This document shows positions 1 through 63,870 of a DNA stretch of 64,000 bases, one piece after another; positions within the stretch are counted from its first letter, which is position 1; the number at the start of each line of letters is the position of its first letter. The notes under the pieces are model-generated. The model ran no database searches. It had not been told where the DNA came from and was given only the letters and a program-made list of their open reading frames with translations. This DNA is from Octopus sinensis (taxonomy: Eukaryota), in the NCBI RefSeq assembly GCF_006345805.1, contig NC_043003.1, positions 96,844,001 to 96,908,000 of the forward strand. Direction: 5' to 3'. The translations under genes and the position numbers were made by a program.

Positions 1-32
1 TCCAAATTAAAGTTTTCACAATACCTTTTCTT

Positions 33-1513
33 TTATATATACTCCATTATGTCTACCAAATCTGAGTAAATTTCCATCGTTCGAGGCCACCTTGGAAGTC
101 GGCATTTCATATGTTTTAACACGTTCTCGCCAGCTGCCTCGATGAACGCCTCGGCGTCGTTCTCGTGGACGAGTGCACCTGTTTCTTTCCATTCGGTGCC
201 CATCCTGACCCACGTATATCCGTTTGTTTCGCTTATTAAATTTTCCATCTCCTCACAGTGCTTGTGATGGATCAACGTTCCATAGTATTTGAATTTTCTA
301 TTCGTACCTGCGTTTTCTCTAGTTTTTCTCTTAGGACTTACTTCCTCTTTTTTCTCCTCCCTTGGTTTCTCTCTTTCTCTCTTTTTGCTTTCTCTTCTTT
401 CTTTTTCCTTCTCTTGTCTTTTTGGCTCTTTGTCTGCCGTCTCTCTACCCTGTGCCTTAAGTTCCTTTCCTGTTGTTTCTTTTCCTTTTTGCATACCATC
501 TTTTCCTTTCTCTTGGTTCTGTTCCTTCTCTTGTTCTTTTCCTGCCTTTTCTCTTTCCTTTAATGTACTTTCCTTTTCTTTCTCTTGCTTCTGCCTTGGC
601 TCCTTCTCCTCTACTTCTGCACCCTGTGACTTTTGCTCCTTTTCTACTATCTTCTTCCCTTTGTTTTCATTTTCCTTCAGTGCGCTGTTACTTCCCTTCT
701 CTTGTTGTTTCTCCGTTATTTCCTTTTCCTTGTTTTCGCTGTTCTTTCCTTCGTGTTCGTTTTCCTTCTCTCCACTTTGTGTCTCTTTTTGCTCCGCTGT
801 GACTTCATACAGCGGACATTCCTTTTTTATGTGCCCTCTTGAACCGCACAGGTAGCAATTCGGTTTTCTGCCTTCCACTATTACACTAATTGTTTTTTCG
901 TTTTCTATTTCTATTTGGAAGGGAAATCTTTCGATGTCTTCAATTGTGGCCATCAGCCACAACTCGACTCCGAATCCCTTCCAATTTACAACGTCGTCTC
1001 CTTAATTGACCCTATTTCTACTTCCTCTTTTGCTGCTCCAATAATGGCTGTTACCAGCATTTCTGTTTTAATATTTGGGGGCACCTTTGGGACTCTTACC
1101 CGTACCCCTCGTCTTCCTTTATACGTCGGCCACATGGTGAAATTTTCCGCTTTCAGGACAGTGGAAGCCAATGAGGCCGCCACTTCCTTTGTTGCGCATC
1201 TCACCTCCACCGTACCATATTTCTTTCCTCTGTCTACAAAAGTCGCTTTTTTCATGATGTCCCCCAGACATTTCTCTATTTCTTCAATCGTCACTCTCAC
1301 CAGTTTTCTCGTGTTTCTATCTTGCGTTCTATACGTTATCGTCATGTTATTTTTCTCTTCTATTGTTTCCACAGGCGGGACCAGCTTCACGCTGTCACCC
1401 TCCCTTTTGACGAACTTCTCGTATTCCTTCAATTGTTCTTTTCTAAAGAACACTTCTTTTATTCTAAGTGACTCGTCACTTTTTGTTGTGGCGACCCCCG
1501 CGTAAGTCTCCAT
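33..1513 (-). CDS. Subtype A ORF1/gag-like protein, unit 1 (~490 aa; one frameshift near 990)
   Basis: ORFs 986-1513 and 33-962 join. METYAGV start, RRM-like region, CYLCGSRGHIKKEC zinc knuckle, E/K-rich linker, C-terminal ~85-aa globular-looking domain. Confidence 0.8.
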
Positions 1514-1759
1514 GACTTGAGGGTCGACACACCTTCTATAAAAGGTTCAAACACGCAGCGGCAAACGCCTCGCGCGATTCAATTTTTGACAATTTTTTAA
1601 CAGTTTTTTTCCAAAGTTTCACATGCAAAAAATAACTCACAACACACTTGGGTAAATTTCCGCCGTGTTGTTTTATTATTACCCACTAGGGGCTACATAG
1701 ATGGGACAATACAATCGGGAAAATGAATAATGAATTATGAAGTTTGTACAATGTGGTGC

Positions 1760-1802
1760 AATGCCCACTCGATCCCCGAAATCGAGCGGTTACATTTCGT
1801 CA
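1760..1802 (-). promoter_or_regulatory. Conserved 3'UTR stem-loop of array units (copies at ~3737, 5518, 7320, 9129, 10912)
   Basis: Sense ATGT-AA-CCGCTCGAT[TTCGGGG]ATCGAGTGG-GCAT. Conserved between subtypes A and B although the surrounding UTR is divergent. Confidence 0.6.
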
Positions 1803-1965
1803 TTTATTTTTATTCGTCAACAATATTTTCAAATAAAACATTTTATACATTTTCAACATACATTTCAAAAAGTTTTACAAAGTTCAACATTTCTTTTTTT
1901 TTTTTTTTTCCGAATTTAAAGTTCTTTTATCATTTCCAAATTAAGTTTTCACAATACCTTTTCTT

Positions 1966-3441
1966 TTATATATACTCCATTATGTCTACCAAATCTGAGT
2001 AAACTTCCATCGTTCGAGGCCACCTTGGAAGTCGGCATTTCATATGTTTTAACACGTTCTCGCCAGCTGCCTCGATGAACGCCTCGGCGTCGTTCTCGTG
2101 GACGAGTGCACCTGTTTCTTTCCATTCGGTGCCCATCCTGACCCACGTATATCCGTTTGTTTCGCTTATTAAATCTTCCATCTCCTCACAGTGCTTGTGA
2201 TGGATCAACGTTCCATAGTATTTGAATTTTCTATTCGTACCTACGTTTTCTCTAGTTTTTCTCTTAGGACTTACTTCCTCTTTTTTCTCCTCCCTCGGTT
2301 TCTCTCTTTCTCTCTTTTTGCTTTCTCTTCTTTCTTTTTCCTTCTCTTGTCTTTTTGGCTCTTTGTCTGCCGTCTCTCTACCTGTGCCTTAAGTTCCTTT
2401 CCTGTTGTTTCTTTTCCTTTTTGCATACCATCTTTTCCTTTCTCTTGGTTCTGTTCCTTCTCTTGTTCTTTTCCTGCTTTTTCTCTTTCCTTTAATGTAC
2501 TTTCCTTTTCTTTCTCTTGCTTCTGCCTTGGCTCCTTCTCCTCTACTTCTGCACCCTGTGACTTTTGCTCCTTTTCTACTATCTTCTTCCCTTTGTTTTC
2601 ATTTTCCTTCAGTGCGCTGTTACTCCCTTCTCTTGTTGTTTCTCCGTTATTTCCTTTTCCTTGTTTTCGCTGTTCTTTCCTTCGTGTTCGTTTTCCTTCT
2701 CTCCACTTTGTGTCTCTTTTTGCTCCGCTGTGACTTCATACAGCGGACATTCCTTTTTTATGTGCCCTCTTGAACCGCACAGGTAGCAATTCGGTTTTCT
2801 GCCTTCCACTATTACACTAATTGTTTTTTCGTTTTCTATTTCTATTGGAAGGGAAATCTTTCGATGTCTTCAATTGTGGCCATCAGCCACAACTCGACTC
2901 CGAATCCCTTCCAATTTACAACGTTCGTCTCCTTAATTGACCCTATTTCTACTTCCTCTTTTGCTGCTCCAATAATGGCTGTTACCAGCATTTCTGTTTT
3001 AATATTTGGGGGCACCTTTGGGACTCTTACCGTACCCCTCGTCTTCCTTATACGTCGGCCACATGGTGAAATTTTCCGCTTTCAGGACAGTGGAAGCCAA
3101 TGAGGCCGCCACTTCCTTTGTTGCGCATCTCACCTCCACCGTACCATATTTCTTCCTCTGTCTACAAAAGTCGCTTTTTTCATGATGTCCCCCAGACATT
3201 TCTCTATTTCTTCAATCGTCACTCTCACCAGTTTTCTCGTGTTTCTATCTTGCGTTCTATACGTTATCGTCATGTTATTTTTCTCTTCTATTGTTTCCAC
3301 AGGCGGGACCAGCTTCACGCTGTCACCCTCCCTTTTGACGAACTTCTCGTATTCCTTCAATTGTTCTTTTCTAAAGAACACTTCTTTTATTCTAAGTGAC
3401 TCGTCACTTTTTGTTGTGGCGACCCCCGCGTAAGTCTCCAT
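1966..3441 (-). CDS. Subtype A ORF1, unit 2 (several single-base frameshifts)
   Basis: Near-identical to unit 1, with single-base deletions at different places. Confidence 0.75.
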
Positions 3442-3844
3442 GACTTGAGGGTCGACACACCTTCTATAAAAGGTTCAAACACGCAGCGGCAAACGCCTCG
3501 CGCGATTCAATTTTTGACAATTTTTTAACAGTTTTTTTCCAAAGTTTCACATGCAAAAAATAACTCACAACACACTTGGGTAAATTTCCGCCGTGTGATT
3601 TTATTACTACCCACAAGGGGCGAACATAGAGGGGACAATACAATCGAGGAACTTAAAATAAGAAAGCGAAATGACAAGAAAAGGAAAAAATTAAAAGTAA
3701 AAAATGACATATGAAAGAATATTTACAATGAGATGTAAATGCCCACTCGATCCCCGAAATCGAGAGGTTACATTTTCGTCACATATATTTTACAATATTT
3801 TCTTTTTTTTTTTTTTCTTCTTTCTTCTCTCTCTTCTCACAATT

Positions 3845-5239
3845 TTATACGTATTCCATAATACCTTTCAAGTCTCTAAAGTCAATCACTGAGCCCTCAG
3901 GCAGCCGCTTTCATTCGAACACCCGTGTAAAAAATACACTCTCTCCAGCTGCTCTGAGGAACTCAGCGACTCTTTCTTCGGGGATCAGAGCAGTCTCCTG
4001 CCACTGATCAGTCATCCTGTTGACCCACACATGTCCCTCCGTACTACATGTCAATTCCTTCATTTCAGGGGTGAAATGGAAGGTTATTAACTTGTAGTAA
4101 TCTTGTTTTCGTCCTACGTTTTCCCTCGTTTTTCTTTTCGGGCTTACTTCTTCCTTGTTCTCCTCTCTTTGTTTCTCTCTTTCTCTCTTTTTGCTTTCTT
4201 CTTTCTTCTTCCTTCTCTTGTCTTTTTGGTTCTTTGTCTGTTCTCTCTTTCTCTCGTGTTTTATGTTCCTTTTCTTTTTCTTTTTGTGTGCCGTCTTTTC
4301 TTTTCGTTTGATTCTGATCTCTCTCTTGTTTTTTTCCTGTTGTTTCTTTTTCCTTTTTCTTTTCCTGACTCTGTTTTGGTTCCATTTCTTTCTTTTCTTT
4401 TATATCTTTTTCTTTCGTTGACTTATTATTTCCTTTCTCTTGTTGTTTTGTCTCCTTTTCTATGTTTTCTTTTTCATTTACCTTATTCTTCCTTTCTTCA
4501 AGTTCCTGCTCGTACTCCGCTATGAATTCGTATAGCGGGCACTCTTTTTTAATGTGCCCCCTTGTCCCGCACAAGTAGCAGTTTGGCTTTCTACCCCTAC
4601 AATTACACTGAGGGTTTTCTCGTCTTCGATTTCTATTCTGTAGGGGAACCTTTCAATGTCCTCTTTTGTGGCCATCAAACACAGTTCTACCCCATATCCT
4701 CTCCAGTTTACTGCATTGGACTCCTTAAAGGATTCCACCTCCACTTCCTCTTCTGCTGCTCCCAGAATAGCTGTTGCCAGCCACTCTGTTTTTATTTCTG
4801 GGGGTATATTCGGGATTTTAACCCGGACCCCTCTTCTTCCCTTGTATGAGGGCCACATTATGAATGTTTCCGCTCTTAGAACAGTGGTAGCCAGTGAGGC
4901 TGCAATTTCTTCCGTTGCACATCTCACCTCCACCGTACCAAATTTTTTTCCTCTACTCACGTAGGTCGATTTATCCATTATGTCTCCCAGACATTTTTCG
5001 ATCTCTGCTATCTCCACTCTTGCCAGTTTCTTTGTACTTTTGTCCTGGGTTCTATACGTTACAGTTTTGTTTTCTTTGTCCTCTTTTGCTTTCGCGGGGG
5101 GGATTAGCTTCACGCTATCACCCTCCCTTTTGAATAGCTTTTCGTATTCTTTGAGTTTATTCTTCTCAAAGAAAACATCCTTCACGACTATCGAGCAATC
5201 ATTACTTCTCTTTCCCGTGACCCCCGCGTAAGTCGCCAT
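3845..5239 (-). CDS. Subtype B ORF1, unit 3 (~465 aa, frameshifted)
   Basis: MATYAGV start, CGTRGHIKKEC knuckle, ends ...KGIMEYV. Confidence 0.75.
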
Positions 5240-5624
5240 GACTAGAGGGTCAATTCACCTTCTTCGGAAGGTTTCCACACGTAGAGGCAAACGCCTCGCG
5301 CGATAATTATCAATTTACACAACAAAATTCCTGTCTAGTCACAGATAACAACACACTTGGGTAAATTTCCGCCGTGGGATTTTATTACTACCCACAAGGG
5401 GCGAACATAGAGGGGACAATACAATCGAGGAACTTAAAATAAGAAAGCGAAATGACAAGAAAAGGAAAAAATTAAAAGTAAAAAATGACATATGAAAGAA
5501 TATTTACAATGAGATGTAAATGCCCACTCGATCCCCGAAATCGAGAGGTTACATTTTCGTCACATATATTTTACAATATTTTCTTTTTTTTTTTTTTCTT
5601 CTTTTTCTCTCTCTTCTCACAATT

Positions 5625-7023
5625 TTATACGTATTCCATAATACCTTTCAAGTCTCTAAAGTCAATCACTGAGCCCTCAGGCAGCCGCTCTTTCATTCGA
5701 ACACCCGTGTAAAAAATTACACTCTCTCCAGCTGCTCTGAGGAACTCAGCGACTCTTTCTTCGGGGATCAGAGCAGTCTCCTGCCACTGATCAGTCATCC
5801 TGTTGACCCACACATGTCCCTCCGTACTACATGTCAATTCCTTCATTTCAGGGGTGAAATGGAAGGTTATTAACTTGTAGTAATCTTGTTTTCGTCCTAC
5901 GTTTTCCCTCGTTTTTCTTTTCGGGCTTACTTCTTCCTTGTTCTCCTCTCTTTGTTTCTCTCTTTCTCTCTTTTTGCTTTCTTTTCTTTCTTCTTCCTTC
6001 TCTTGTCTTTTTGGTTCTTTGTCTGTTCTCTCTTTCTCTCGTGTTTTATGTTCCTTTTCTTTTTCTTTTTGTGTGCCGTCTTTTCTTTTCGTTTGATTCT
6101 GATCTCTCTCTTGTTTTTTTCCTGTTGTTTCTTTTTCCTTTTTCTTTTCCTGACTCTGTTTTGGTTCCATTTCTTTCTTTTCTTTTATATCTTTTTCTTT
6201 CGTTGACTATTATTTCCTTTCTCTTGTTGTTTTGTCTCCTTTTCTATGTTTTCTTTTTCATTTACCTTATTCTTCCTTTCTTCAAGTTCTGCTCGTACTC
6301 CGCTATGAATTCGTATAGCGGGCACTCTTTTTTAATGTGCCCCCTTGTCCCGCACAAGTAGCAGTTTGGCTTTCTACCCTCTACAATTACACTGAGGGTT
6401 TTCTCGTCTTCGATTTCTATTCTGTAGGGGAACCTTTCAATGTCCTCTTTTGTGGCCATCAAACACAGTTCTACCCCATATCCTCTCCAGTTTACTGCAT
6501 TGGACTCCTTAAAGGATTCCACCTCCACTTCCTCTTCTGCTGCTCCCAGAATAGCTGTTGCCAGCCACTCTGTTTTTATTTCTGGGGGTATATTCGGGAT
6601 TTTAACCCGGACCCCTCTTCTTCCCTTGTATGAGGGCCACATTATGAATGTTTCCGCTCTTAGAACAGTGGTAGCCAGTGAGGCTGCAATTTCTTCCGTT
6701 GCACATCTCACCTCCACCGTACCAAATTTTTTTCCTCTACTCACGTAGGTCGATTTATCCATTATGTCTCCCAGACATTTTTCGATCTCTGCTATCTCCA
6801 CTCTTGCCAGTTTCTTTGTACTTTTGTCCTGGGTTCTATACGTTACAGTTTTGTTTTCTTTGTCCTCTTTTGCTTTCGCGGGGGGGATTAGCTTCACGCT
6901 ATCACCCTCCCTTTTGAATAGCTTTTCGTATTCTTTGAGTTTATTCTTCTCAAAGAAAACATCCTTCACGACTATCGAGCAATCATTACTTCTCTTTCCC
7001 GTGACCCCCGCGTAAGTCGCCAT
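5625..7023 (-). CDS. Subtype B ORF1, unit 4
   Basis: ORFs 6262-7023 and 5625-6170; CYLCGTRGHIKKEC. Confidence 0.75.
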
Positions 7024-7428
7024 GACTAGAGGGTCAATTCACCTTCTTCGGAAGGTTTCCACACGTAGAGGCAAACGCCTCGCGCGATAATTATCAATTT
7101 ACACAACAAAATTCTGTCTAGTCACAGATAACAACACGTAAACATATACAACAACACATTGGGTAAATTTCCGCCGTGGGATTTTATTACTACCCACAAG
7201 GGGCGAACATAGAGGGGACAATACAATCGAGGAACTTAAAATAAGAAAGCGAAATGACAAGAAAAGGAAAAAATTAAAAGTAAAAAATGACATATGAAAG
7301 AATATTTACAATGAGATGTAAATGCCCACTCGATCCCCGAAATCGAGAGGTTACATTTTCGTCACATATATTTTACAATATTTTCTTTTTTTTTTTTTTT
7401 CTTCTTTCTTCTCTCTCTTCTCACAATT

Positions 7429-8850
7429 TTATACGTATTCCATAATACCTTTCAAGTCTCTAAAGTCAATCACTGAGCCCTCAGGCAGCCGCTCTTTCAT
7501 TCGAACACCCGTGTAAAAAATTACACTCTCTCCAGCTGCTCTGAGGAACTCAGCGACTCTTTCTTCGGGGATCAGAGCAGTCTCCTGCCACTGATCAGTC
7601 ATCCTGTTGACCCACACATGTCCCTCCGTACTACATGTCAATTCCTTCATTTCAGGGGTGAAATGGAAGGTTATTAACTTGTAGTAATCTTGTTTTCGTC
7701 CTACGTTTTCCCTCGTTTTTCTTTTCGGGCTTACTTCTTCCTTGTTCTCCTCTCTTTGTTTCTCTCTTTCTCTCTTTTTGCTTTCTTTTCTTTCTTCTTC
7801 CTTCTCTTGTCTTTTTGGTTCTTTGTCTGTTCTCTCTTTCTCTCGTGTTTTATGTTCCTTTTCTTTTTCTTTTTGTGTGCCGTCTTTTCTTTTCGTTTGA
7901 TTCTGATCTCTCTCTTGTTTTTTTCCTGTTGTTTCTTTTCCTTTTTGCATACCATCTTTTCCTTTCTCTTGGTTCTGTTCCTTCTCTTGTTCTTTTCCTG
8001 CTTTTTCTCTCTTTCTCTCGTGTTTTATGTTCCTTTTCTTTTTCTTTTTCTTTTTCTTTTTCTTTTTCTTTTTCTTTTTCTTTTTCATTTACCTTATTCT
8101 TCCTTTCTTCAAGTTCCTGCTCGTACTCCGCTATGAATTCGTATAGCGGGCACTCTTTTTTAATGTGCCCCCTTGTCCCGCACAAGTAGCAGTTTGGCTT
8201 TCTACCCTCTACAATTACACTGAGGGTTTTCTCGTCTTCGATTTCTATTCTGTAGGGGAACCTTTCAATGTCCTCTTTTGTGGCCATCAAACACAGTTCT
8301 ACCCCATATCCTCTCCAGTTTACTGCATTGGACTCCTTAAAGGATTCCACCTCCACTTCCTCTTCTGCTGCTCCAGAATAGCTGTTGCCAGCCACTCTGT
8401 TTTTATTTCTGGGGGTATATTCGGGATTTTAACCGGACCCCCTCTTCTTCCCTTGTATGAGGGCCACATTATGAATGTTTCCGCTCTTAGAACAGTGGTA
8501 GCCAGTGAGGCTGCAATTTCTTCCGTTGCACATCTCACCTCCACCGTACCAAATTTTTTTCCTCTACTCACGTAGGTCGATTTATCCATTATGTCTCCCA
8601 GACATTTTTCGATCTCTGCTATCTCCACTCTTGCCAGTTTCTTTGTACTTTTGTCCTGGGTTCTATACGTTACAGTTTTGTTTTCTTTGTCCTCTTTTGC
8701 TTTCGCGGGGGGGATTAGCTTCACGCTATCACCCTCCCTTTTGAATAGCTTTTCGTATTCTTTGAGTTTATTCTTCTCAAAGAAAACATCCTTCACGACT
8801 ATCGAGCAATCATTACTTCTCTTTCCCGTGACCCCCGCGTAAGTCGCCAT
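7429..8850 (-). CDS. Subtype B ORF1, unit 5, with subtype-A patch in linker
   Basis: ORFs 8320-8850, 7850-8395 and 7429-8088. Contains A-type KEQNQEKGKDGMQKGK. Confidence 0.75.
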
Positions 8851-9237
8851 GACTAGAGGGTCAATTCACCTTCTTCGGAAGGTTTCCACACGTAGAGGCA
8901 AACGCCTCGCGCGATAATTATCAATTTACACAACAAAATTCCTGTCTAGTCACAGATAACAACACACTTGGGTAAATTTCCGCCGTGGGATTTTATTACT
9001 ACCCACAAGGGGCGAACATAGAGGGGACAATACAATCGAGGAACTTAAAATAAGAAAGCGAAATGACAAGAAAAGGAAAAAATTAAAAGTAAAAAATGAC
9101 ATATGAAAGAATATTTACAATGAGATGTAAATGCCCACTCGATCCCCGAAATCGAGAGGTTACATTTTCGTCACATATATTTTACAATATTTTCTTTTTT
9201 TTTTTTTTTTCTTTTTCTTCTCTCTCTTCTCACAATT

Positions 9238-10634
9238 TTATACGTATTCCATAATACCTTTCAAGTCTCTAAAGTCAATCACTGAGCCCTCAGGCAGCCG
9301 CTCTTTCATTCGAACACCCGTGTAAAAAATTACACTCTCTCCAGCTGCTCTGAGGAACTCAGCGACTCTTTCTTCGGGGATCAGAGCAGTCTCCTGCCAC
9401 TGATCAGTCATCCTGTTGACCCACACATGTCCCTCCGTACTACATGTCAATTCCTTCATTTCAGGGGTGAAATGGAAGGTTATTAACTTGTAGTAATCTT
9501 GTTTTCGTCCTACGTTTTCCCTCGTTTTTCTTTTCGGGCTTACTTCTTCCTTGTTCTCCTCTCTTTGTTTCTCTCTTTCTCTCTTTTTGCTTTCTTTTCT
9601 TTCTTCTTCCTTCTCTTGTTTTTGGTTCTTTGTCTGTTCTCTCTTTCTCTCGTGTTTTATGTTCCTTTTCTTTTTCTTTTTGTGTGCCGTCTTTTCTTTT
9701 CGTTTGATTCTGATCTCTCTCTTGTTTTTTTCCTGTTGTTTCTTTTCCTTTTTCTTTTCCTGACTCTGTTTTGGTTCCATTTCTTTCTTTTCTTTTATAT
9801 CTTTTTCTTTCGTTGACTTATTATTTCCTTTCTCTTGTTGTTTTGTCTCCTTTTCTATGTTTTCTTTTTCATTTACCTTATTCTTCCTTTCTTCAAGTTC
9901 CTGCTCGTACTCCGCTATGAATCGTATAGCGGGCACTCTTTTTTAATGTGCCCCCTTGTCCCGCACAAGTAGCAGTTTGGCTTTCTACCCTCTACAATTA
10001 CACTGAGGGTTTTCTCGTCTTCGATTTCTATTCTGTAGGGGAACCTTTCAATGTCCTCTTTTGTGGCCATCAAACACAGTTCTACCCCATATCCTCTCCA
10101 GTTTACTGCATTGGACTCCTTAAAGGATTCCACCTCCACTTCCTCTTCTGCTGCTCCCAGAATAGCTGTTGCCAGCCACTCTGTTTTTATTTCTGGGGGT
10201 ATATTCGGGATTTTAACCGGACCCCCTCTTCTTCCCTTGTATGAGGGCCACATTATGAATGTTTCCGCTCTTAGAACAGTGGTAGCCAGTGAGGCTGCAA
10301 TTTCTTCCGTTGCACATCTCACCTCCACCGTACCAAATTTTTTTCCTCTACTCACGTAGGTCGATTTATCCATTATGTCTCCCAGACATTTTTCGATCTC
10401 TGCTATCTCCACTCTTGCCAGTTTCTTTGTACTTTTGTCCTGGGTTCTATACGTTACAGTTTTGTTTTCTTTGTCCTCTTTTGCTTTCGCGGGGGGGATT
10501 AGCTTCACGCTATCACCCTCCCTTTTGAATAGCTTTTCGTATTCTTTGAGTTTATTCTTCTCAAAGAAAACATCCTTCACGACTATCGAGCAATCATTAC
10601 TTCTCTTTCCCGTGACCCCCGCGTAAGTCGCCAT
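9238..10634 (-). CDS. Subtype B ORF1, unit 6
   Basis: ORFs 9915-10634 and 9238-9936. Confidence 0.75.
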
Positions 10635-11020
10635 GACTAGAGGGTCAATTCACCTTCTTCGGAAGGTTTCCACACGTAGAGGCAAACGCCTCGCGCGATA
10701 ATTATCAATTTACACAACAAAATTCCTGTCTAGTCACAGATAACAACACACTGGGTAAATTTCCGCCGTGGGATTTTATTACTACCCACAAGGGGCGAAC
10801 ATAGAGGGGACAATACAATCGAGGAACTTAAAATAAGAAAGCGAAATGACAAGAAAAGGAAAAAATTAAAAGTAAAAAATGACATATGAAAGAATATTTA
10901 CAATGAGATGTAAATGCCCACTCGATCCCCGAAATCGAGAGGTTACATTTTCGTCACATATATTTTACAATATTTTCTTTTTTTTTTTTTTTTTCTTCTT
11001 TCTTCTCTCTCTCTCACATT

Positions 11021-12415
11021 TTATACGTATTCCATAATACCTTTCAAGTCTCTAAAGTCAATCACTGAGCCCTCAGGCAGCCGCTCTTTCATTCGAACAC
11101 CCGTGTAAAAAATTACACTCTCTCCAGCTGCTCTGAGGAACTCAGCGACTCTTTCTTCGGGGATCAGAGCAGTCTCCTGCCACTGATCAGTCATCCTGTT
11201 GACCCACACATGTCCCTCCGTACTACATGTCAATTCCTTCATTTCAGGGGTGAAATGGAAGGTTATTAACTTGTAGTAATCTTGTTTTCGTCCTACGTTT
11301 TCCTCGTTTTTCTTTTCGGGCTTACTTCTTCCTTGTTCTCCTCTCTTTGTTTCTCTCTTCTCTCTTTTTGCTTTCTTTTCTTTCTTCTTCCTTCTCTTGT
11401 CTTTTTGGTTCTTTGTCTGTTCTCTCTTTCTCTCGTGTTTTATGTTCCTTTTCTTTTTCTTTTTGTGTGCCGTCTTTTCTTTTCGTTTGATTCTGATCTC
11501 TCTCTTGTTTTTTTCTGTTGTTTCTTTTTCCTTTTTCTTTTCCTGACTCTGTTTTGGTTCCATTTCTTTCTTTTCTTTTATATCTTTTTCTTTCGTTGAC
11601 TTATTATTTCCTTTCTCTTGTTGTTTTGTCTCCTTTTCTATGTTTTCTTTTTCATTTACTTATTCTTCCTTTCTTCAAGTTCCTGCTCGTACTCCGCTAT
11701 GAATTCGTATAGCGGGCACTCTTTTTTAATGTGCCCCCTTGTCCTGCACAAGTAGCAGTTTGGCTTTCTACCCTCTACAATTACACTGAGGGTTTTCTCG
11801 TCTTCGATTTCTATTCTGTAGGGGAACCTTTCAATGTCCTCTTTTGTGGCCATCAAACACAGTTCTACCCCATATCCTCTCCAGTTTACTGCATTGGACT
11901 CCTTAAAGGATTCCACCTCCACTTCCTCTTCTGCTGCTCCCAGAATAGCTGTTGCCAGCCACTCTGTTTTTATTCTGGGGGTATATTCGGGATTTTAACC
12001 CGGACCCCTCTTCTTCCCTTGTATGAGGGCCACATTATGAATGTTTCCGCTCTTAGAACAGTGGTAGCCAGTGAGGCTGCAATTTCTTCCGTTGCACATC
12101 TCACCTCCACCGTACCAATTTTTTTCCTCTACTCACGTAGGTCGATTTATCCATTATGTCTCCCAGACATTTTTCGATCTCTGCTATCTCCACTCTTGCC
12201 AGTTTCTTTGTACTTTTGTCCTGGGTTCTATACGTTACAGTTTTGTTTTCTTTGTCCTCTTTTGCTTTCGCGGGGGGGATTAGCTTCACGCTATCACCCT
12301 CCCTTTTGAATAGCTTTTCGTATTCTTTGAGTTTATTCTTCTCAAAGAAAACATCCTTTACGACTATCGAGCAATCATTACTTCTCTTTCCCGTGACCCC
12401 CGCGTAAGTCGCCAT
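11021..12415 (-). CDS. Subtype B ORF1, unit 7
   Basis: ORFs 12101-12415, 11656-11922 and 11021-11563. Confidence 0.75.
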
Positions 12416-12839
12416 GACTAGAGGGTCAATTCACCTTCTTCGGAAGGTTTCCACACGTAGAGGCAAACGCCTCGCGCGATAATTATCAATTTACACAACA
12501 AAATTCCTGTCTAGTCACAGATAACAACACACTTGGGTAAATTTCCGCCGTGGGTTCAAATATTCTTTCTTCTCTACATTGTATACTTTATAGACAATAG
12601 ACTTTTCTTTAATTTCATTTTTTATTATCCATCTGGACTATTCCATTTCTGTACGCTAATTTTATATTTAATTTATTCCCATTCATGGGAAACCACTTAT
12701 TCAAGTTCAAGTCATTGATGCAATTTTATATCAATTGTTATTTTTATTTTATTTTTATGTTACGATTATATTATACTTTAGTTTGATTTTAATTATTACT
12801 TACTACATATAATTCAATTGATATTATTATTTTTATTGT

Positions 12840-13253
12840 TAAAGTGAAAGTATCTGACATAAAATAGAGAAAATGTTTTTGTTTCACTTTTAACACGTAA
12901 TACTGAAATAGTGGAGAAGATATGATATTGCTATGGGCTCGCTCTAGGCAAGAAGTTAAACTTTTTTGCCCATGAAACTACAGGGACGCTAAGTAAGCCA
13001 TGTGTAAAATTTGAATGAAATTGGTCGTGTAGTTCTCAAGTTTTAGGGAATCGTAGTGGAGAAGATATGATATTGCTGTGGGCTCGCCCTAGTCAAAAAG
13101 TTCAAAATTTTTTTTGGCGATATCACTCTCCGGTCATGTGTAAGGCATGTGTAAAATTTGACTGAAATTGGTTGTGTAGTTCTCAAGTTTTAGGGAAACA
13201 CACAGACAGACAGACAGACAGAAACATATTCTCAATTTTATATATATAAAGAT
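12840..13253 (+). mobile_element. Helitron/Helentron-like (DINE/Lep1-type) non-autonomous element fragment
   Basis: Internal ~145-bp duplication (AGTGGAGAAGATATGATATTGCT...GTGTAAAATTTGA...GTAGTTCTCAAGTTTTAGGGA). Ends (ACAG)n...TTTATATATATAAAGAT. Confidence 0.4.
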
Positions 13254-13839
13254 AATTCAATCTAGCAGCTATAGTAAGTGGTATAAGCACATGTCGATCT
13301 GGACTAATTCTCTTCTGCACTCAATTAAAATTTTCATATTTTAATTTCTCCCATTCATGCAAAGCCACATATTCAAGTTCAAGTCCTTGATACATTTTAT
13401 ACTAATTGCTATTTTTTCTTTTCATTGTTATATAACGATTTAATTACCATTTTAATAAAATAAAATATATTTAATTACTACTTACTATATTTACTATATT
13501 TAATTCAATTGTTATTATTACCTCTAACTTTTTTTGCAATTTTTTTTCTAAATTTCTTATGGAACGTCGAGTGGATCGTATGCGTACAATATATTTTTAT
13601 ATGCTGTTTATATATTTGTATATTACTATATATTTCTAAACGTCGGACTTTATGCCTGTTCAGTAGATATAAATGAATATATGAATATATGTATGTGTTT
13701 GATCTTTCTGTGGATTTTGTAGTGCTTTTGTAGGTGCTGCTCGCATTGCCTCACCTAGGATTAAAAAGTGTATACAGCTCTGCTATATATTTTGAGCGTT
13801 GTTGTCACTAACGATCTCAAGATATTACTTTATATTTTG

Positions 13840-16130: not shown

Positions 16131-17520
16131 GTCAACCTCTACTCCAATATCCCCCACAACCTAGGACTAGAGGCAATCCAATTCTGGCTAGAGAATCACA
16201 CCAACGAACTACCACACCGCATCAAAAAAGAATTTGTGATAGAAGGGGTTAAATTCATCCTGGAAAATAACTTCTTCGCCTTCAATGACAACTTCTACCG
16301 ATAAAAATCGGGGACTGCGATGGGTACACGAATGGCCCCCTCCTTTGCCAACCTAGTCATAGGATACCTAGAGATCAGTCTGTATCGTAAGGTTCTAGAA
16401 AGATATGGCAGCCCTTTCTCCATCTACATAGAAAACAACTGGAAGAGCTATCTAGATGACTGTTTCATCCCTTGGCATAAAAATATAGAAAAACTCATAG
16501 AATTCCAGGAAATTTTAAACGGACTGGACGTAAACATCCAATTCACGATGGAATATAGCCAGCAACAACTCCCCTTCCTCGATATCCTCATTAAGAAAGC
16601 TAATAATATAATAGAAACAGACATATACTATAAGCCTACAGACTCTAAGCAATATCTTCATTCAATTCATGCCACCCCAGACACCACCAGATGAATATCC
16701 CCTTCAATCTAGCAAAAAGGATATGCACTATAGTCTCTAACGCAAACACCAGAGACACACGACTACAAGAACTAAAAGATACCCTTATCACCAGGAACTA
16801 TCCACCTTCACTTATTGACAAGTGCATTCAACGTGCCCTTCAACTTAACATCAAGGAACTAAGACATCCCAAATCAAAGAAAAACTTACAACCAAAAACC
16901 TTACCATACATCTCCACACACAACCCTCTCAATAACGAAGCCTTCGGCACCATCCTCCACAAAAAAAGACCCTCCTAAAAAAAGACCACAGAATGAACAC
17001 AATCCTCCAAACACACACGATCATAAAAAGCAAAAGACAGCCTAGATCCATGAAAAGTCTCCTAACACAAGCCCGAATTCACTCTTCAACACAGAAGCCG
17101 ACAGTAAAAAAATGTGGAAGACCCAATTGCGGGATATGCGACTATCTAATTGAGGGATCAGAGTTCTCCTTCAAACAGGGACAACGGTTTACAGTGAAAA
17201 GCAACTTCACATGTGCTTCGGAGAACCTAATATACTCACTAACCTGCTCCGGGTGTCAAGAGCAGTACATAGGCCAAACAAAAAATAGTTTGCGTAAACG
17301 AATGGCCCTCCACAGATCCCAGATAAAAATTCCCCAAAACAGAAAAATAGCTTTTAGCCAACACATAGATACTTGCGCCAACAAAAAAACACCAAACTTC
17401 AGGATTTTCCCCCTCTACCAATTTAGGGACGATACAACATCGAGACAACGAATAAGTAAAGAAAATCTCTTTATTACAAAATACAAGCCACTTCTTAACG
17501 GGTCTACGACAAACAATTAA
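16131..17520 (+). pseudogene. Penelope-like element ORF: reverse transcriptase + GIY-YIG endonuclease (stop and frameshifts; 5' end lost in gap)
   Basis: VNLYSNIP, GTAMGTRMAPSFANL, YLDDCF, LPFLDI, YYKPTDSKQYL; CGRPNCGIC linker; NLIYSLTC...YIGQT GIY-YIG. Confidence 0.93.
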
Positions 17521-18889: not shown

Positions 18890-19293
18890 TATAAAGTACA
18901 ATTATAAAGGTATAAAATGAAGATATAAAGTGAAAATCGAATATTAAAGAAGGTACACATATACAAGAATAAGCATATATACATATATACATATACATAT
19001 AAGTGTATATACACCTACATATACATATATATATAAGTATATACATAATAATATACCACACACACACACACATATATATATAATATACAAACACGCATGC
19101 AACATACATACATACGTACATACATACATACACACATACGCATACGACAGTTTTCTTTCAGTTTCCATCTGCCAAATCCACTCAAAAGCTTTTGGTTGGT
19201 TTGAGATTATAGGTTTATATTAAATTACCCTTCTTCAATGTGCCACGCCGTGGGGTTGAACCCCGTGGCATGTTGTTAGGGAGCAAACTTCTT

Positions 19294-20864
19294 TATTTCA
19301 TTAAATTTGCCACAAGGGCAGCACACAGAGAGAAGCTCGAGGGCTAGACAGAGACATTAATGGGATGAATGATGATGATATATGGATGATAAGGATGGGA
19401 GAAGACGAAAAGCGCCCGCCGACTTTCGCTTCTCTAAAACATTGTTCTTTTTTTCTTTTTTTAAAAAACACAATGAGGCAATAAACCTCTTACACAGTTC
19501 AAAATTAAAAATAAAACACAAACACGAGGCAATAATCCTCTCACTTTTTACATTTTTAGTCTCTTTTTGAGGTAATACGCCTCTTCAATTTTTCCGCCCG
19601 GCCAGGCTCCTCGCTTCATCGAAGCACCTGGTCCGTTCCGAGCTTAAAGGTTTCAACATAAATCTGAAGGAGTCCTTCGGGAAGGAGTTCGTTATCTTCC
19701 ATAGATCGTTCTCCCATATGACCTCCGCAGCCACCTGCGAAGGCCACTCAGGGTCCTCCGTGTAGGACAGAAGCCCCTCCCACCGGCACTTCCTTTCATT
19801 TTTTTTGTTTTCATTTTGCAAGGTTCCTCCCTTGTGGAAGAGATCCAAAAATTCCTTCTTCAGCAGCACACTCGCCAAAGGAGAATCGGGACACGCCGGC
19901 AGCGTGTCACAACCAGCCGACAATGTCCCGTTTTTCTCTTTTCTTTTCTTTTTCCCTTGGGGTGCGGGAGGGTGGTGTTCCCAGGCTGTGTCCAGCAGGT
20001 TCTTTTCTCCCGCAGCTCTCGGGTTCTTCGGTGGGCAACCATTGTTGCCCACCTTTCGCTTTCGTTTTTTCGAGGAGGTGGAAAGCTCCTCGACATCCTC
20101 ACCCTTCTCTCCTTCTATTGTGGGAGCAGGGAGTGGTTCCTCTGTTAACTGCTCCAGAATCCTATTTTGGTCCTTGGGGCAGTTTTTCTTGATGTGACCG
20201 GTCTCCAGGCTTTCGGGAAAACGGTTATGGTATCGAGCGACTTTGAATAAGTCCTCAACACCACCGTCTTCTTTTCGAGCTCTTTTAGCCATGATTTGGG
20301 AGGTGTTAATTCCCACATTAATATTTCCTTTGCCATTTTTTTTTTTAAATAAAAAGTTCAAATATAGTTCGTCAATACGTTTTCAAATAAAGAAAGAAGA
20401 CACAACAGAAGGGAAGAAAAAATTAAAATAACAGTTCAAATAAAGTTCTTTTTTTTTTTTTAAATAAATGATAGCTGTGAAAAGAGAGTTCAAATCCAGG
20501 CAAAGAAATAAATTTTCGGCCGAAAGGTACTCATGGCCAATTCTTTTAATCCACGTGGGCACAAACATTTTCAAATATAATTTCTCACAATTATGTGAGA
20601 CAACACACACGTCTCCACCGCAAGGCAGACAAAAATCTTCGAATTCAGTAAGGACTCCTTGCCTGTTCAAAAAAATAAAACCAACAGGCAACCAATCCTA
20701 CCGGACTCAAAAAGCAAAAAGTCTTACCTTACAGCGTCTTTCAGTTCAACTTTCGCCAGCTGCATACCAGCGTTACGACTTTAACAGGTGCGTGAAGAAC
20801 ACTGTTTTTGTTCTTTTTTCTTTTTAGGACGGAGCTCAGAGGGAGGCGTCCTCTCAGTTCAACC
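19294..20864 (-). mobile_element. Solitary ORF1-only Tx1/L1-like non-autonomous element with ~15-bp TSD
   Basis: Flanks GGGAGCAAACTTCTT (19279-19293) and GGAAGCAAGCTTCTT (20865-20879). Tail TGCCCTTGTGGCAAATTTAATGAAATA. Contains an ORF with GHIKKNCP. Confidence 0.75.
19585..20292 (-). CDS. Internally deleted ORF1-like protein (half zinc knuckle, basic linker, C-terminal domain)
   Basis: MAKRARKEDGG...LETGHIKKNCP...KKRKRK...WPSQVAAEVIWEND; open frame. Confidence 0.6.
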   Translation of the reverse strand: MAKRARKEDGGVEDLFKVARYHNRFPESLETGHIKKNCPKDQNRILEQLTEEPLPAPTIEGEKGEDVEELSTSSKKRKRKVGNNGCPPKNPRAAGEKNLLDTAWEHHPPAPQGKKKRKEKNGTLSAGCDTLPACPDSPLASVLLKKEFLDLFHKGGTLQNENKKNERKCRWEGLLSYTEDPEWPSQVAAEVIWENDLWKITNSFPKDSFRFMLKPLSSERTRCFDEARSLAGRKN

Positions 20865-21289
20865 GGAAGCAAGCTTCTTACGACACAGTCACACTTTACT
20901 CGTTACATGTTATGGTGTGGTTGTACCATTTACTATCACTCAAATCATAATGTAACATTGAAGAAATATGCAATTTAAAGATAATATTATTCCAAAATCA
21001 TGATAAGTGAGTGAACTCAATTGCAAACAACCCTGATAAGAAGTTCCTCTGGCAAACAAAGTCAGTGATATAGTGTCTCAACTTTGATTTAACTATGTTG
21101 ACTTTACCGTTTCTACCTGAAATAGGACACTAACGCTCTAGTTGATCTCGGTTGACATACACTGCGTTGATGATCATCGAAGTAGGAAAAAGACTCAAGC
21201 GTTTCCTTTAATTTTAAGATGTTACAAGACCAAGACCTCAACAGTAAGAATGCTGCACCTAAAATTGAAACTAGTAAACTATTATATTA

Positions 21290-21690
21290 CGCCCTTTGTC
21301 CCCTACGAGACAGAAACGTGGACAATGAACAGAGCAATAGAAAAGAAGATAAATGCCTTTGTGATATGGATTTTTCGTAAATTGAGCAGAATAAGCCAGA
21401 AAGACAGAGTAACAAACGCTGCAGTATTAGAAAAGCTGGGAGTCCAAAGACACTTACAGTCGAAAATCGGGTCCACAAAGTTATACTTTGGACATTCAAT
21501 ACACCACGACCGATTGGGACGGAAGTATGAAGAAGAAGAGAGCAAGAGGCCGTCAGCTGTGGACTGATGATATCAAAGAATGGACTGGAAACAAGAACTT
21601 AGCTGATTGTATGCATACAGCATAACATAGAGGGAAATGGAAAGTCTTCACATGCCGAACTCTCGACAGTGTGGACATATGGCTGATGAA
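21290..21690 (+). mobile_element. RTE-clade LINE 3' fragment
   Basis: YETETWT..KKINAF.IWIFRKL.RIS.KDRVTN..VL, YFGH, WTDDIKEWTG. Confidence 0.8.
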
Positions 21691-21837
21691 GAGTGAGTAG
21701 CTTGAATACAGAACACTTTGACACTATTTCAGAAAAAAAGGATGACTTAAGAGAAGGATTAAACAGGTGTAGGGCAGCGATAAATTTGATTGATACATGA
21801 ATGCAGGCATTCAAACAGACGTACATAGATACATAGG

Positions 21838-56599: not shown

Positions 56600-59540
56600 A
56601 TGTGCATGTGTGTGTAACTTTCATCGGTATGTATATTGGCGAAAGATATCAAAATTGGCGAGAAAGCTTTAAAAACTCGGCGCATTTCCAGCACTATTTG
56701 TTGTGAATCAAGTTAGATATTCCTCAGAAATGCTTCACCTGTTTGAAACCGATCACAAATTATGATACAAATAAATAAATAAATAATTCCCAGTAGGCCT
56801 GTTACCGCTCAAATAATTTGCCAAAAATATTTCTAGTTATAAACTCATTATTCTACATCATATAAACCTAATACGTTATAAATATTTAATTTTTTTTCAG
56901 ATACGGAACTGTTTTGTAATTACATTATATGATGTTTCAAATAATCTTATATCAATTATAATGATGGTAACGAAATAAAATACAATAAACTTTATAGAAA
57001 AATGAAATGCTTTGACGTTCACGTGCTTCCAGGATCATTAACACAGTTATTGAACGCAAATTGTCTCAACAAAAATCAAATCCGACTCGTGCATATAGGC
57101 TACCATGACTTCTTCCCATCCCCCCTCTCTCTCTCTTCTCTTACATATACACACCAACATATATTTATATGTACACACAGTGCCTATCTTCGGAAATACT
57201 TTTGCCAATAAAATATTTTCTTATTTAAACAATGATTGGGTGCAATTACTGATAGAAACAACGTACCATATTACAATTAAATCACCATATTATATTACAT
57301 GTATTTATTTTATTGACTCAGATATTTATTACAAGCAATTATATTATCAATCTCGGGAGATTCGAACCCAGCATATAGATAGATAAGGTAAGATACTGTA
57401 AGGTATTTATTCCGGTATTATCCTTTGTTTTGTTTCGACTTGTCATTTTGTTGCTTTGTTTTATTTGATTAGTATTGATTTCTCTTAATCAAATGCGTGG
57501 TATGAGTTTTCCAGGCTGCAATCAGATATGTGATTATATGGCATTCATGACATTCTCAAGAGTACATCATAAGCAAGTTAAGAAAAATACTTAAGATACA
57601 TCTAATTGGGATTCAAAAATGAGATATAAAATAATGATTTAAAACATTTTTGTTAATAAAATATGAGATTGTAGTTTTAGTTTTAGACAGGTATTCCAAA
57701 AGAAAAAAATAAATAACACCGCCAGAGTCATCTTTATACCTATATGACGAAAATAACCATTTATTACAATGCCTTTTACCATTCGCACGATACGTTATGT
57801 CTCTTTTCCTAAGAGAATAGTATATAACTTTCTTTTCAGAATAGAAATAACTATTTATTGTTTAGTGCATAGCAAAGTATAAGTTTGAATCCAACAGCAA
57901 TTTAGTATTTTTTATTTTATTTTCGAAAAACAACGTTTTCGTCCCTCCCTCATTCATATTGATCTTAGGTGTATGGCATCAAATTGTATTAATTATTTGT
58001 TTTTCATTATCGCTTTGTCTTTTCTCCATAATCTGCAGATGTAAATTTGTCTTTCCTTCATAATCTCGTTTTGTCTTTCCTACGTAATCTACAGATCCAC
58101 ATTCCAATATTTTTATATTCCATTGATAAAGCTCATAGACAGTTAAAAAATCTGTGTTACACTTCAGTTTTTCAGAGTTATGTATAAATATAAGCGTAAA
58201 GAAAAGTGAAATGAAACAGAAGACGCAATCAGAGATACTATTTGTTCAAATCAAAATGTTTTTCCTCAGAGAGATTCAGTGAAACTGGCGACAATTGGTA
58301 TGTATAAAATCAAAATTTAGTACATATCAAAATACTTCTATTGCATAGTTAGGTCCCATTACCGATGGACAGCCAAAAGCTGTTTTCCTAGCAAAGAAAA
58401 AAGAAGCTATATCATTAATTAATAGCGACAAAAAAATTATACATAGTGAGAATGATAACACGACATATTAATGACATGTTTTGGATCAAGAAGTTATACT
58501 GGAACGTTAGTCTGCATTTCCGAATATAAGCTGCCTTTGACTGCTGATTGGGTGGTGGGACCTGGCTGTGTAGTAGATTAATTCTGCTGGAAAACAAAAG
58601 TTGGCTTCATTCTTACGAGGCAAAGACTCACCAGCTTGAATGAGCTTCCCTAACAAAAAAAAAAAAATTAAGCTTTGCTAATTATTGAATTTTCTATTTA
58701 AATCCAGAGTAAAGTTAAGCTGTATTTTATATTCCGAAGGACCCTTTCTTTTTTCATCATCTGTAGAAGCACATTTTAATGTGACTATATCTCAACAATC
58801 CAGTACATTCTGTTGCGATTGAACTTCAGTCAACTTTAAACTCTTCGGACTTGAATACAAGCGAAAAAAGTCAGTTCTGAATTTTGTTATAACACATTAT
58901 TAATTCTCAACACAAGACGAACTATTTATGACCGAAGCATAGCTTCAAACAAAGACAGTATACACAAATGGAGGGTTTCACCATTTGTCAATTTAATAAT
59001 TGCCCACCACTAATACAACAGCATTCTTTTTCCAGAGTTGTACTTATGATATGGGCCAAATTTGAGTGAATAGATCATGACACTTCTATAGAGCCTGTTC
59101 TATAAGTATGGTATCTACTTGAGCATTTACATACCACATATAATCTCTCTTCTTAATTGTGACACACTACATTTCAAATTTATCCCTGGTTCATGTTCTA
59201 CGTGAAAGTATAATACTTTTCCTGATTTCAAAATAGCAACCGTTTTACCAAAAACAGAATAAATTTGTTGTGAACATTGTGTCATTATTAGAAATATAAT
59301 AAAAGATCTTAACAAGTTAACCAACTGAATGAGAATAACGATTCAGTGCTCTTCTTTTCTTCTCAAGGAAAGAAAAAATCGTTAAATGGTGTTCATGGAC
59401 GTAAAGCACAAGGCCTGAAATTTGGGAGAGAGGGATAATCGATTATATCAACCTCAGAATTCACCTAGTACTTATTTTAGCAACCGCGGAAGGGTGACAG
59501 GCGGAATTTGAACTCAGAACGTAAAGACGGACGAAATACC

Positions 59541-59770
59541 TATTTCTTTACTACCCACAAAGAGCCAAACACAGAGAGGACAAACAAGGACAGACAAATG
59601 GATTAAGTCGATTACATCGATCCCAGTGCGTAACTGGTACTTATTTAATCGACCCCGAAAGGATGAAAGGCAAAGTCGACCTCGGCGGATTTTGAACTTA
59701 GAACGTAAAGACGGACGAAATACCGCTAAGCATTTCACGTGGTGTGCTAACGATTCTGCTAGTTCACTGC
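59541..59770 (-). mobile_element. tRNA-SINE with Tx1-like 3' tail, nested in a same-family SINE
   Basis: Tail TTGTCCTCTCTGTGTTTGGCTCTTTGTGGGTAGTAAAGAAATA is followed by GGTATTTCGTCCG, which also occurs in its own head. Confidence 0.75.
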
Positions 59771-60161
59771 TTTGGATAGAAGCACTCCGTCGGTTACGAC
59801 GACGAGGGTTCCGGTTGATCCGATCAACGGAACAGCCTGCTCGTGAAATTAACGTGTAAGTGGCTGAGCACTCCACAGACACGTGTACCCTTAACGTAGT
59901 TCTCGGGGATATTCAGCGTGACACAGAGAGTGACAAGGCTGGCCCTTTGAAATACAGGCACAACAGAAACAGGAAGAAAGAGTGAGAGAAAGTTGTGGTG
60001 AAAGAGTACAGCAGGGATCACCACCATCCCCTGCCGGAGCCTCGTGGAGCTTTTAGGTGTTTTCGCTCAATAAACACTCACAACGCCCGGTCTGGGAATC
60101 GAAACCGCGATCCTACGACCGCGAGTCCGCTGCCCTAACCACTGGGCCATTGCGCCTCCAC
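59771..60161 (-). mobile_element. Full-length tRNA-derived SINE with 10-bp TSD
   Basis: AGTTCACTGC at 59761-59770 and 60162-60171; A/B-box head. Confidence 0.9.
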
Positions 60162-62083
60162 AGTTCACTGCCTTATGTATGTAAATAATGGCAACAGTTT
60201 ACCGAAATGGATTCTTATACATACAGAGGAAGCAATGAATAAATTATTTTGAAATGTTTTCGTGGGATACTGTGAGCTACCACACGAGTGTATCGTCGAT
60301 AGCTGAGTAATAAGTCCAGTGGCCTCGAAAACACCAGTGGAACCTAAGTGCAAAGCGTTATGAAAGACCGATGAACCAAGTGTCACACTAAATGGATGTA
60401 CTTGTAGCTATTTTATCTCATCTTCCTTCATATGAGATGCTACAAAACCTTTCCATGAACCAATAAGCATTGTTCACCGCTATGGGAAGCCAGACATGTT
60501 ATTTTGATTTTTATTATATAATCTAAACCCTTTCGCGGTTAATAAAAAAAAAGTACGATCTGAATCCTGTGGTCAATGTAATCGACTGACTCACCTCACT
60601 GAAGTTGCTGGCCGTATGTAAAAATTTGAAGCCTTTAATCTAGATTAATTTGAAATTGTTGAAAAAAATGTATAATCGGCCAAATTTGATTTCCAGATTA
60701 TTTAGTAAGAAACTGGAGATATTAAAAGGCATTATGAATGTACTAGTATAAGTCAAATCCTTAGTTTATTCAATTCAATTCCAGGCGCTGATAATCTTGG
60801 AAGCACAAGTTGCACTTCATTCAGCAGATGATTTCAATATCTTTTTCTGTAGAATTTTCACCGAAGAATTTAGAACTGTCGGATCAAAATCAAAGACAGT
60901 ACACATAGATAAAGTGTTTCACTTTTTATCAATTTAACTATTGCTTGCATCTGATAAAACAATATCCCTTGTTGAAATTCACAGCTATGACGTTTAACAA
61001 ATTTATATGAATAGATTCGATGTATCATTATGTATATATAATAAACTATTTGAGTAAACTGTTGGTATTATGTGCACCTGTGGACATCATATGCCAACCT
61101 TTCCCTTTCCCTGGGATGAATAGGATAAAGCGCACTAAATTATAAATATCATTCAGTTGGTTAATCCGTTAAAAACTTTGACCAATAGTTCTGTTTTTAA
61201 AGTGTAGTTTGCACGGTCTTTGCAACAATCTCAAACAAGATACAAGACACTGTGGAGTATGAAAAGGTGCGTTTGGATCAACCTATTCTCACTGTTGTTT
61301 CCACAGGACTGGCTGCATCATTGTAAAACCTGTGAGTATACGCCCATGGACCGTTTCATATTGTATTTTCCATTGACTTATTATGTTTGCAGCACTGATG
61401 TTAACAACGAACTACTAAAAATAGTAATTCGTGACCGTGATTTCATCTGTTTGACTGAAAGACTACAACTATCGCGGTATACGTATGAAGATGCTATAAA
61501 CGTATGCTGCGGTCTTTTGCAAAATGATTTACCTTTTGCTAGCATGATTATTTTTCTTTAACGATTTTTATTGATACGTACTCTCTTACAAAATGCCTAA
61601 AGAGCTGCTGACAGAACATAGATGCAACTTATTCTTCATTTTGGTAAATAATGACAAAACTGAAACTTACCATGAATTCATTAACACAAAACCGAGAGGA
61701 TCGTGAAAGAGATTCTATATTTTATTTTTTGGTTCGTATTGCAATGGGAAGGAACAATAAGAGGAAAAGATTGCCCTTCTAAATGATGTTAGGGTTGTAT
61801 CGAATGATGGAGAAATAATAGTACTTATTTTTGTCATCACCCTTAGATCCTACAAACTTCATATGCTAGGTTATACACTTTCCAACCAATGCTGTTATTA
61901 TTTCATAAACAAGAACAATATCAATATATTTGATGGAGAAGCAATCATTAACAAAAAATACTGATTTCTGTGACGGGCTGTAAGATACCTTAATGAAAAA
62001 TAGTATCATACATTATTGAGGTGTTTTAATGCTATTATGAGACTTAAATGAGGCTAATGGAGTTTGTAATAAAACAAGATTTT

Positions 62084-63654: not shown

Positions 63655-63870
63655 AAGGCAGTGAGCTGGTAGAGTTGTTAGCACACCGGATGGAATGACT
63701 AGCGGTTTTTCGTCTGCCGTTACGTTCTGAGTTCAAATTCCGCCGGGGTCGACTTTGCCTTTCATCCTTTCGGAGTCGATAAATTAAGTACCAGTTGTGT
63801 ACTGGGGCCGATCTAATCCACTGGTCTCTTTCCCCAAAATTTCGGGCCTTGTGCCTAGAGTAGAAAAGCT
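63655..63870 (+). mobile_element. tRNA-derived SINE
   Basis: AGGCAGTGAGCTGG..GTTCAAATTCCGCCGGGGTCGAC..GGCCTTGTGCCT. Confidence 0.8.

Follow-up and report, generated by a model that had tools for sequence, protein, structure and literature searches.

Animal LINEs of the L1 group are the textbook case of the relaxed, poly(A)-reading type. Stringent-type systems, in which LINE and SINE end in a short 3' stem-loop with compensatory changes, include eel UnaL2 and zebrafish ZfL2-1/2 (PMC4176376) as well as maize LINE1-1_ZM with ZmSINE2/3 (PMC3747384), and belong to the L2 clade or to plant L1. Table 1 of the 2013 review (PMC3747384) contains no Tx1 pair and no animal L1-group pair. Insertion at fixed sites in other transposons is described for Tx1-Mar/SINEU of crocodilians and for Tx1L in Tx1D of Xenopus; SINEU has a poly(A) end, and neither "stem-loop" nor "hairpin" occurs in the text of the paper (PMC4494074). 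Elements that contain ORF1 only, need a partner ORF2 and show purifying selection on ORF1 are represented by HAL1, HeT-A and Ag-Sponge (PMC5786205; PMC5753468). The Drosophila HeT-A/TART/TAHRE telomere arrays are polar and head-to-tail, with ORF1-only elements mixed with autonomous LINEs (PMC5537684). In Octopus vulgaris 13 recently active L1-Tx1 families were reported, the tails or targets of which are not treated in the accessible part of the paper (PMC13282606).

The window analysed here is a stretch of 64,000 nucleotides from Octopus sinensis (contig NC_043003.1, positions 96,844,001 to 96,908,000). As in the eel, zebrafish and maize systems, its passengers and their LINEs end in a short stem-loop with compensatory changes, but these LINEs belong to the animal L1 group, and the hairpin binding that was demonstrated for ZfL2 (PMC4176376) would in octopus be predicted from sequence. 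As for Tx1-Mar/SINEU, passengers were assigned to partners through a common target, and different families serve different passengers (PMC4494074); in contrast to that system, the 3' hairpin covaries, ORF1-only lineages are among the passengers together with a SINE whose head may be tRNA-like, and SINE heads and a Helitron-like repeat are among the targets. The ORF1-only families A, B and S resemble HAL1, HeT-A and Ag-Sponge in their make-up, but they are site-specific, end in a hairpin rather than in poly(A) and represent old lineages. The octopus arrays share the polarity and mixed composition of the Drosophila telomere arrays, but they are internal and located in a dispersed repeat, and their units are separated by target-site duplications. 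The components (stringent stem-loops, HAL1/HeT-A, Tx1-Mar/SINEU) are known; their combination was not found in print, though Repbase and Dfam may hold the families.

The tail hairpin in the window and across LINE families

The original prediction was that units of an array (A and B), a solo ORF1 element and a SINE share one 3' tail hairpin, the stem of which covaries around a conserved 5-nt loop. All four quoted tail strings were confirmed on the minus strand by a scan of the window. The 3' tail of a B unit (3600..3646, minus strand) contains a conserved TCTATGT motif, the hairpin GCCC-CTTGT-GGGT at 3621-3609 and an A-rich end, and the same hairpin was found in four other B units (5402, 7204, 9013 and 10796). 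The A unit has the hairpin GCCC-CTAGT-GGGT (1693-1681), the solo element TGCC-CTTGT-GGCA (19320-19308) and the SINE GCTC-TTTGT-GGGT (59565-59553), all on the minus strand. A loose scan gave one extra 3-pair match at 24159 (plus strand) that was absent from the covariance-model matches; the covariance model, built from an alignment of 45 tails, recovered all 8 known window tails and one weak match (E 0.57). In the 2.72-Gb genome an exact 18-mer tail pattern had 86,031 matches versus 0 for the reversed control, and all 30 loci fetched from this search were SINE tails.

Within the window the predicted covariation held for the solo element, in which two pairs are changed, but not for the remaining tails: the A and B stems are identical, and the GCTC stem of the SINE occurs in 1 of 107 SINE tails (61 read GCCC.CTTGT.GGGT and 12 GCCC.CTTGT.GGGC) and is decay of one copy, not covariation. 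Nor is the loop strictly conserved, as its length is 4-6 nt and its sequence varies between families.

Covariation was assessed in the 45 tails, aligned with MAFFT without regard to structure, the rows being chosen by ORF2 position or target site; a pairing-based regular expression for picking tails was discarded as circular. The alignment omitted L195, a site match without a tail, and nine ORF2 ends for which the interval searched contained no AATAA motif (L038, L230, L233, L236, L247, L295, L298, L309 and L310). Pairing was found in 87.6% of 177 stem cells versus 65.4% after shuffling, a value reached by 0 of 500 shuffles, and the covariation score was 0.541 versus 0.180 for shuffled and at most 0.165 for slid controls; relatedness is not accounted for by this shuffle control, and 23 of the 45 rows, being old and related copies at the SINE2 site, are not independent. 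The registers of the 4- and 6-nt loops were set by pairing. An ungapped alignment of 21 columns gave 87.5% pairing and a score of 0.629, with double changes at all four pairs. RNAalifold predicted a hairpin at the same alignment columns. In the 15 LINE rows alone, however, the stem pairs ranked only 8, 12, 18 and 44 among 210 column pairs by mutual information. Across LINE families the predicted covariation was recovered.

The tails therefore have the compensatory 3' stem-loop, common to the passengers, by which stringent-type systems are recognised, but single sequences do not show the hairpin above the shuffled background: single tails were no more stable than their shuffles (0 of 10 significant, z from +0.74 to -1.54), and the minimum-energy folds of the A, B and window SINE tails lacked it. 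It is the covariation between families, not single-sequence folding, that supports the structure. This lack of a folding signal, together with the finding that the most conserved tail columns are the unpaired TCT and AATAA motifs, would agree with a tail that descent or recombination has spread and that works at the DNA level or as a 3'-end or priming signal, through its AATAAA-like end and microhomology to the target, rather than as a protein-bound hairpin. We regard this as quite improbable because double changes between ORF2 subclades preserve the pairing at each of the four positions and because the signal collapsed in the slid controls. A further, basal stem (TCTNTGT:ATAAAGA) could form in some families between the conserved upstream motif and the A-rich end.

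An ORF2 tree of 19 loci contained four tail-bearing subclades, each with its own stem (GCCC/GGGY, RATT/AATY, ACCT/AGGW and NGCC/GGCN); locus L038 in this tree had no tail at all. A scan with the covariance model for matches 3' of APE+RT ORFs, as had been proposed, was positive just after ORF2 in 18 of 22 further loci selected by zf-RVT, mostly kin of the training rows, versus 1 of 22 empty host loci, in which the match was located in a flanking SINE. The tail is common to the whole LINE lineage and not to one ORF2 family.

ORF1-only arrays and the adjacent LINE C

Five head-to-tail ORF1-only B units of ~1.78 kb each occupy positions 3596-5365, 5377-7167, 7179-8976, 8988-10759 and 10771-12541 on the minus strand. 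They are accompanied by an ORF1-only A unit of ~1.92 kb (1668..3584, minus strand), the ORF1 of which is ~72% identical to that of B, and by a second A unit (1..1656, minus strand), the tail of which lies 243 bp left of the window. This tail is directly followed by LINE C, then by a further B copy (B') and a second LINE C, after which the host repeat resumes with its 3' half, so that the order in element direction is B x5, A x2, C, B', C.

LINE C begins about 280 bp left of window base 1. The statement that the ORF2 source is not in this window was therefore literally correct, but misses that the driver of the array lies just past the left edge, inside the same array. LINE C is 5.2 kb long and contains an ORF1, an uninterrupted ORF2 of 1132 aa (L031:4722-8120) and the tail hairpin. 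Pfam domains of the ORF2 are Exo_endo_phos, RVT_1 and zf-RVT; its best solved relative is human L1 ORF2 (E 1.7e-67; R2 1.3e-26). The closest named ORF2 relative among the matches listed is from Argonauta hians (62%). The features of the L1 group, namely APE, RT, a C-terminal zinc motif and a preceding ORF1, were found in LINEs C, E and F. No named Tx1 protein was among the matches listed for ORF2; the Tx1 clade label, which we take from the targeting, would fit the L1-group domains as well as the Tx1-type trait that was found, sequence-specific insertion in repeats with target-site duplication. Since autonomous LINEs with an intact APE+RT+zf-RVT ORF2 bear the tail, the proposal that it is a LINE 3' end borrowed by passengers was borne out.

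The B ORF1 contains one CCHC knuckle and is frameshifted in the window copies, whereas it is intact, with 473 aa, in B'. The A and B ORF1 frames in window positions 1-12541 are broken mostly at homopolymer runs, at positions that differ per copy, possibly through long-read errors. The dN/dS ratio of ORF1 was 0.11 for A versus B' (dS 1.5, near saturation) and 0.17 for B versus B'. An ORF1 homologue, the lack of ORF2, a LINE 3' end and a target-site duplication, the hallmarks of ORF1-only LINEs, were all found. Identity of ORF1 to five sampled LINE ORF1 families was 36-38% for A/B and 18-26% for S, which indicates that A/B and S are old self-maintained lineages and not recent deletion products. 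An origin by internal deletion of an identifiable LINE was not supported, given this 18-38% range; the parent LINE may be unsampled or extinct. A comparison of ORF1 with a fish protein with PF23057/PF23058 domains gave no significant match.

The array is located in a ~1-kb repeat with 1996 candidates, the 5' half of which lies at 12554..13255 on the minus strand. In 8 of 10 empty copies its 3' end is a hairpin followed by CTAG, which we take to be a Helitron criterion, and the host is hence read as a non-autonomous Helitron-like repeat. Around the target site (L083-L110; window 12554-12700) the host contains a decayed ORF1 fragment of this LINE group, with the target site inside it, which matched the F ORF1 in pairwise tblastn with E from 1e-17 to 5e-9. 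Through capture of an ORF1 piece the host may have spread ~2000 landing pads. Among 30 host copies chosen by their downstream flank, 22 were empty and 8 were filled at the identical base (6 of 28 filled when the window array and its duplicate are excluded). An exact tail-plus-host pattern had 86 matches, and in the 30 fetched the 3'-most unit was C in 24, A in 5 and B in 1.

The junction CACGGCGGAAA (3585..3595, minus strand) recurs at 1657, 5366, 7168, 8977, 10760 and 12542 and is a variant of the target-site duplication of the host site ACATGGAGGAAA. The possibility that it represents the elements' own 5' end was rejected as a full account: the junction sequence differs between loci and agrees with the empty host site, although it is also present in B copies located outside the host. 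Among the 16 array regions mapped, 11 lie within the host. The last junction was the pristine host site in all 10 arrays in which the 3' end was reached, and inner junctions were mostly copies of the 5' junction of that locus, including those before LINE C copies in the C14 array. Junctions changed stepwise along the C10072 array, and a single insertion with clean duplications was seen on C11. Pristine 3' junctions and copied 5' junctions fit serial target-primed insertion at the upstream site copy: arrays would grow by repeated insertion at the 5' junction, and the oldest unit would thus stand at the 3' end.

Alternatively, the arrays might originate from DNA-level amplification by unequal exchange, Helitron rolling-circle copying or assembly error, with the tail merely inherited. 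A block of 30,010 bp that contains the whole array has a second copy at a distance of 112 kb with 99.95% identity (C7, ~96.718-96.748 vs 96.830-96.858 Mb) and is either an assembly artefact or a very recent duplication; moreover, the C1 array contains nine similar A units and a repeated host piece, and the C1, C3 and C7 arrays have the same B-A-C order and one junction variant. However, units of three unrelated families alternate, each bounded by a locus-specific junction, and the LINE C copies with the C14 array's own junction, the stepwise drift in C10072 and the clean C11 insertion likewise speak against amplification, which we consider unlikely as the origin of the arrays. A part of the host repeated mid-array in one array and two identical units in one SINE tandem indicate that DNA-level duplication contributes in addition to target-primed insertion. 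Partner fidelity is loose: of 15 regions with B, 4 are not in the host, and in one of these B stands beside LINE C2 at a different site.

Related elements were observed at other loci. A D-type ORF1-only family lies after a B copy and before a piece of a LINE ORF2 (L044:6450-8480, plus strand), and a relative of it (L093) is located at the Helitron-like site. On C9 (76.60-76.63 Mb, L321-L323) a C-related LINE forms a tandem array without the Helitron-like host, in which three internally deleted units of 3.57 kb are flanked by two full-length copies.

Passengers and LINEs at SINE heads

SINE1 is a high-copy, dispersed element with a LINE tail and target-site duplications. The window contains a SINE1 body with the LINE-type tail at 59541..59770 (minus strand), with the decayed stem GCTC/GGGT, and a second body at 59400..59540 (minus strand), which starts at the GGTATTTCG site targeted by LINE E and ends in an alternative SINE1 tail. 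This second tail type, unrelated to the first, was also found at 63654-63875 (plus strand), so that one head and body occurs with two tails. The first bases of the SINE1 head are interrupted by a third SINE (59772-60162, minus strand) with an 11-bp duplication. A/B box-like motifs were recognised by eye in the SINE1 head, and ARAGORN and Rfam gave no match in the window.

In 29 of 30 loci LINE E, which has an intact frame of 1134 aa in L264, terminates at the GGTATTTCG site of the SINE1 head, and all 10 full-length copies have the SINE1 head upstream and a duplication of ~16 bp. The E site directly follows 29,315 of the 86,031 exact tails (34%), the window's SINE among them. It was not found before any of 22 SINE heads, which implies that self-insertion, if real, joins at identical sequence and leaves one head. 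SINE1 tandems would accordingly form when the SINE inserts in its own head and the cDNA joins at identical sequence; the different SINE tail at the end of three tandem chains speaks for insertion rather than plain duplication. Duplications of 9-19 bp were found in 12 of 17 non-tandem SINE1 copies with a head, which are dispersed. Such copies could have been mobilised by a less specific family such as H, in which the last ~25 bases are as in SINE1 and the flanks are varied. Among the sampled families no LINE had the full SINE1 tail; SINE1 scored 34-39 of 57 against seven of them, with no clear best. In L066, L201, L235 and L252 the sequence after the SINE1 tail is a second internal site, located further upstream in the SINE1 head, which suggests another SINE-targeting family.

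Two further insertion sites were noted. A tail-bearing LINE, seen in one copy, stands directly before a U1 snRNA-like 5' end (L301:2221 onward, plus strand), presumably that of a U1 snRNA gene, and L302-L307 represent a young LINE family with an AU-only stem and one further fixed site.

The solo ORF1-only element of the window (19293..20864, minus strand) belongs to family S, which is ~2 kb long in relatives, the window copy being ~440 bp shorter. Its 14-bp target-site duplication (3' copy 19279..19292, 5' copy 20865-20878, minus strand, 2 mismatches) lies in a SINE2 head. All 30 fetched S copies, namely the window copy, two local duplicates of its locus (L115 and L116) and 27 others, end at one SINE2-head site. 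The S tail-end-plus-site pattern had 206 matches, and a hairpin with varied stems was present in 29 of 30 fetched. LINEs F/G end at the SINE2-head site in 26 of 30 loci, and in 8 of 8 full-length F copies checked the SINE2 head lies upstream with a duplication of 14-16 bp; two 5'-truncated loci were left out. On either side of the solo element two further fragments were observed on the plus strand. At 16132-17520, next to an assembly gap, a GIY-YIG fragment (Pfam E 1.9e-5) after an RT-like stretch represents a Penelope-like element, and at 21142-21700 a short open frame resembles, by eye, the C-terminal part of another LINE ORF2.

For the SINE2 site, complementarity was found between a motif in the 3' UTR and the first 8-10 bases of the target, and the motif follows whether the target is the A or the T variant: among 76 junctions 57 were concordant, 1 was discordant and 18 had no motif. 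Such agreement would be expected if the tail RNA paired with the landing site and helped to choose it, the passengers being partly self-targeted. This is doubtful in view of several observations. The concordance reflects one or two independent changes (F versus G/S lineages), and pairing within read-through RNA explains it equally well. In E, the U1-site family, L302, C2 and SINE1 the match is 4-6 nt only, no better than to foreign sites, and tails that land elsewhere also have the 7-8 nt match to the host site seen in C/A/B/D.

ORF2 families, their passengers and target sites

The original prediction assigned all three passenger classes to one Tx1-like ORF2 family. This part did not stand: three fixed sites were found, each common to a different ORF2 family, with A/B and LINE C at the Helitron-like site, S and LINEs F/G at the SINE2 site, and SINE1 and LINE E at the SINE1 head. 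The ORF2s of C, E and F/G are 63-72% identical over the last 352 aa (F/G 64% to C). The A and B tails match that of C best (45 and 49 of 57), whereas S matches G/F best (34 and 33). A single family is thus highly improbable, and this reading fails on the four ORF2 subclades with their own stems and on the S stem and end, which match F/G rather than C, even though the GCCC/GGGT stem is common to A, B, SINE1 and LINE C. Cross-use also exists: B stands beside LINE C2 and at non-host sites, and one SINE1 copy (L074) is located at the SINE2 head.

The reading that we hold with good confidence is that the hairpin is a 3' end common to a radiation of L1/Tx1-group LINEs, likely bound by ORF2, that A, B, S and the SINE likely ride several ORF2 families, and that each endonuclease likely sets the site. 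In this mechanism the ORF2 protein would bind the hairpin RNA of the tail, and a common landing site would point to a common enzyme. A more speculative and rather unlikely extension is a two-part address, in which the lineage-wide hairpin would load any ORF2 of the group while a short tail segment pairs and co-evolves with the site, so that RNA would help to steer insertion and passengers could switch drivers and targets. If this were true, each array would be a time-ordered tape of active families.

The intact ORF2s, the natural stem variants and the distinct targets together form a panel that could be used to separate RNA recognition from target choice, and site-specific LINEs are of interest for targeted gene insertion. 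For the octopus genome, the system links this LINE group with a SINE present in tens of thousands of copies and accounts for SINE tandems and mixed arrays as results of targeting, with the arrays as ordered records of transposon activity.
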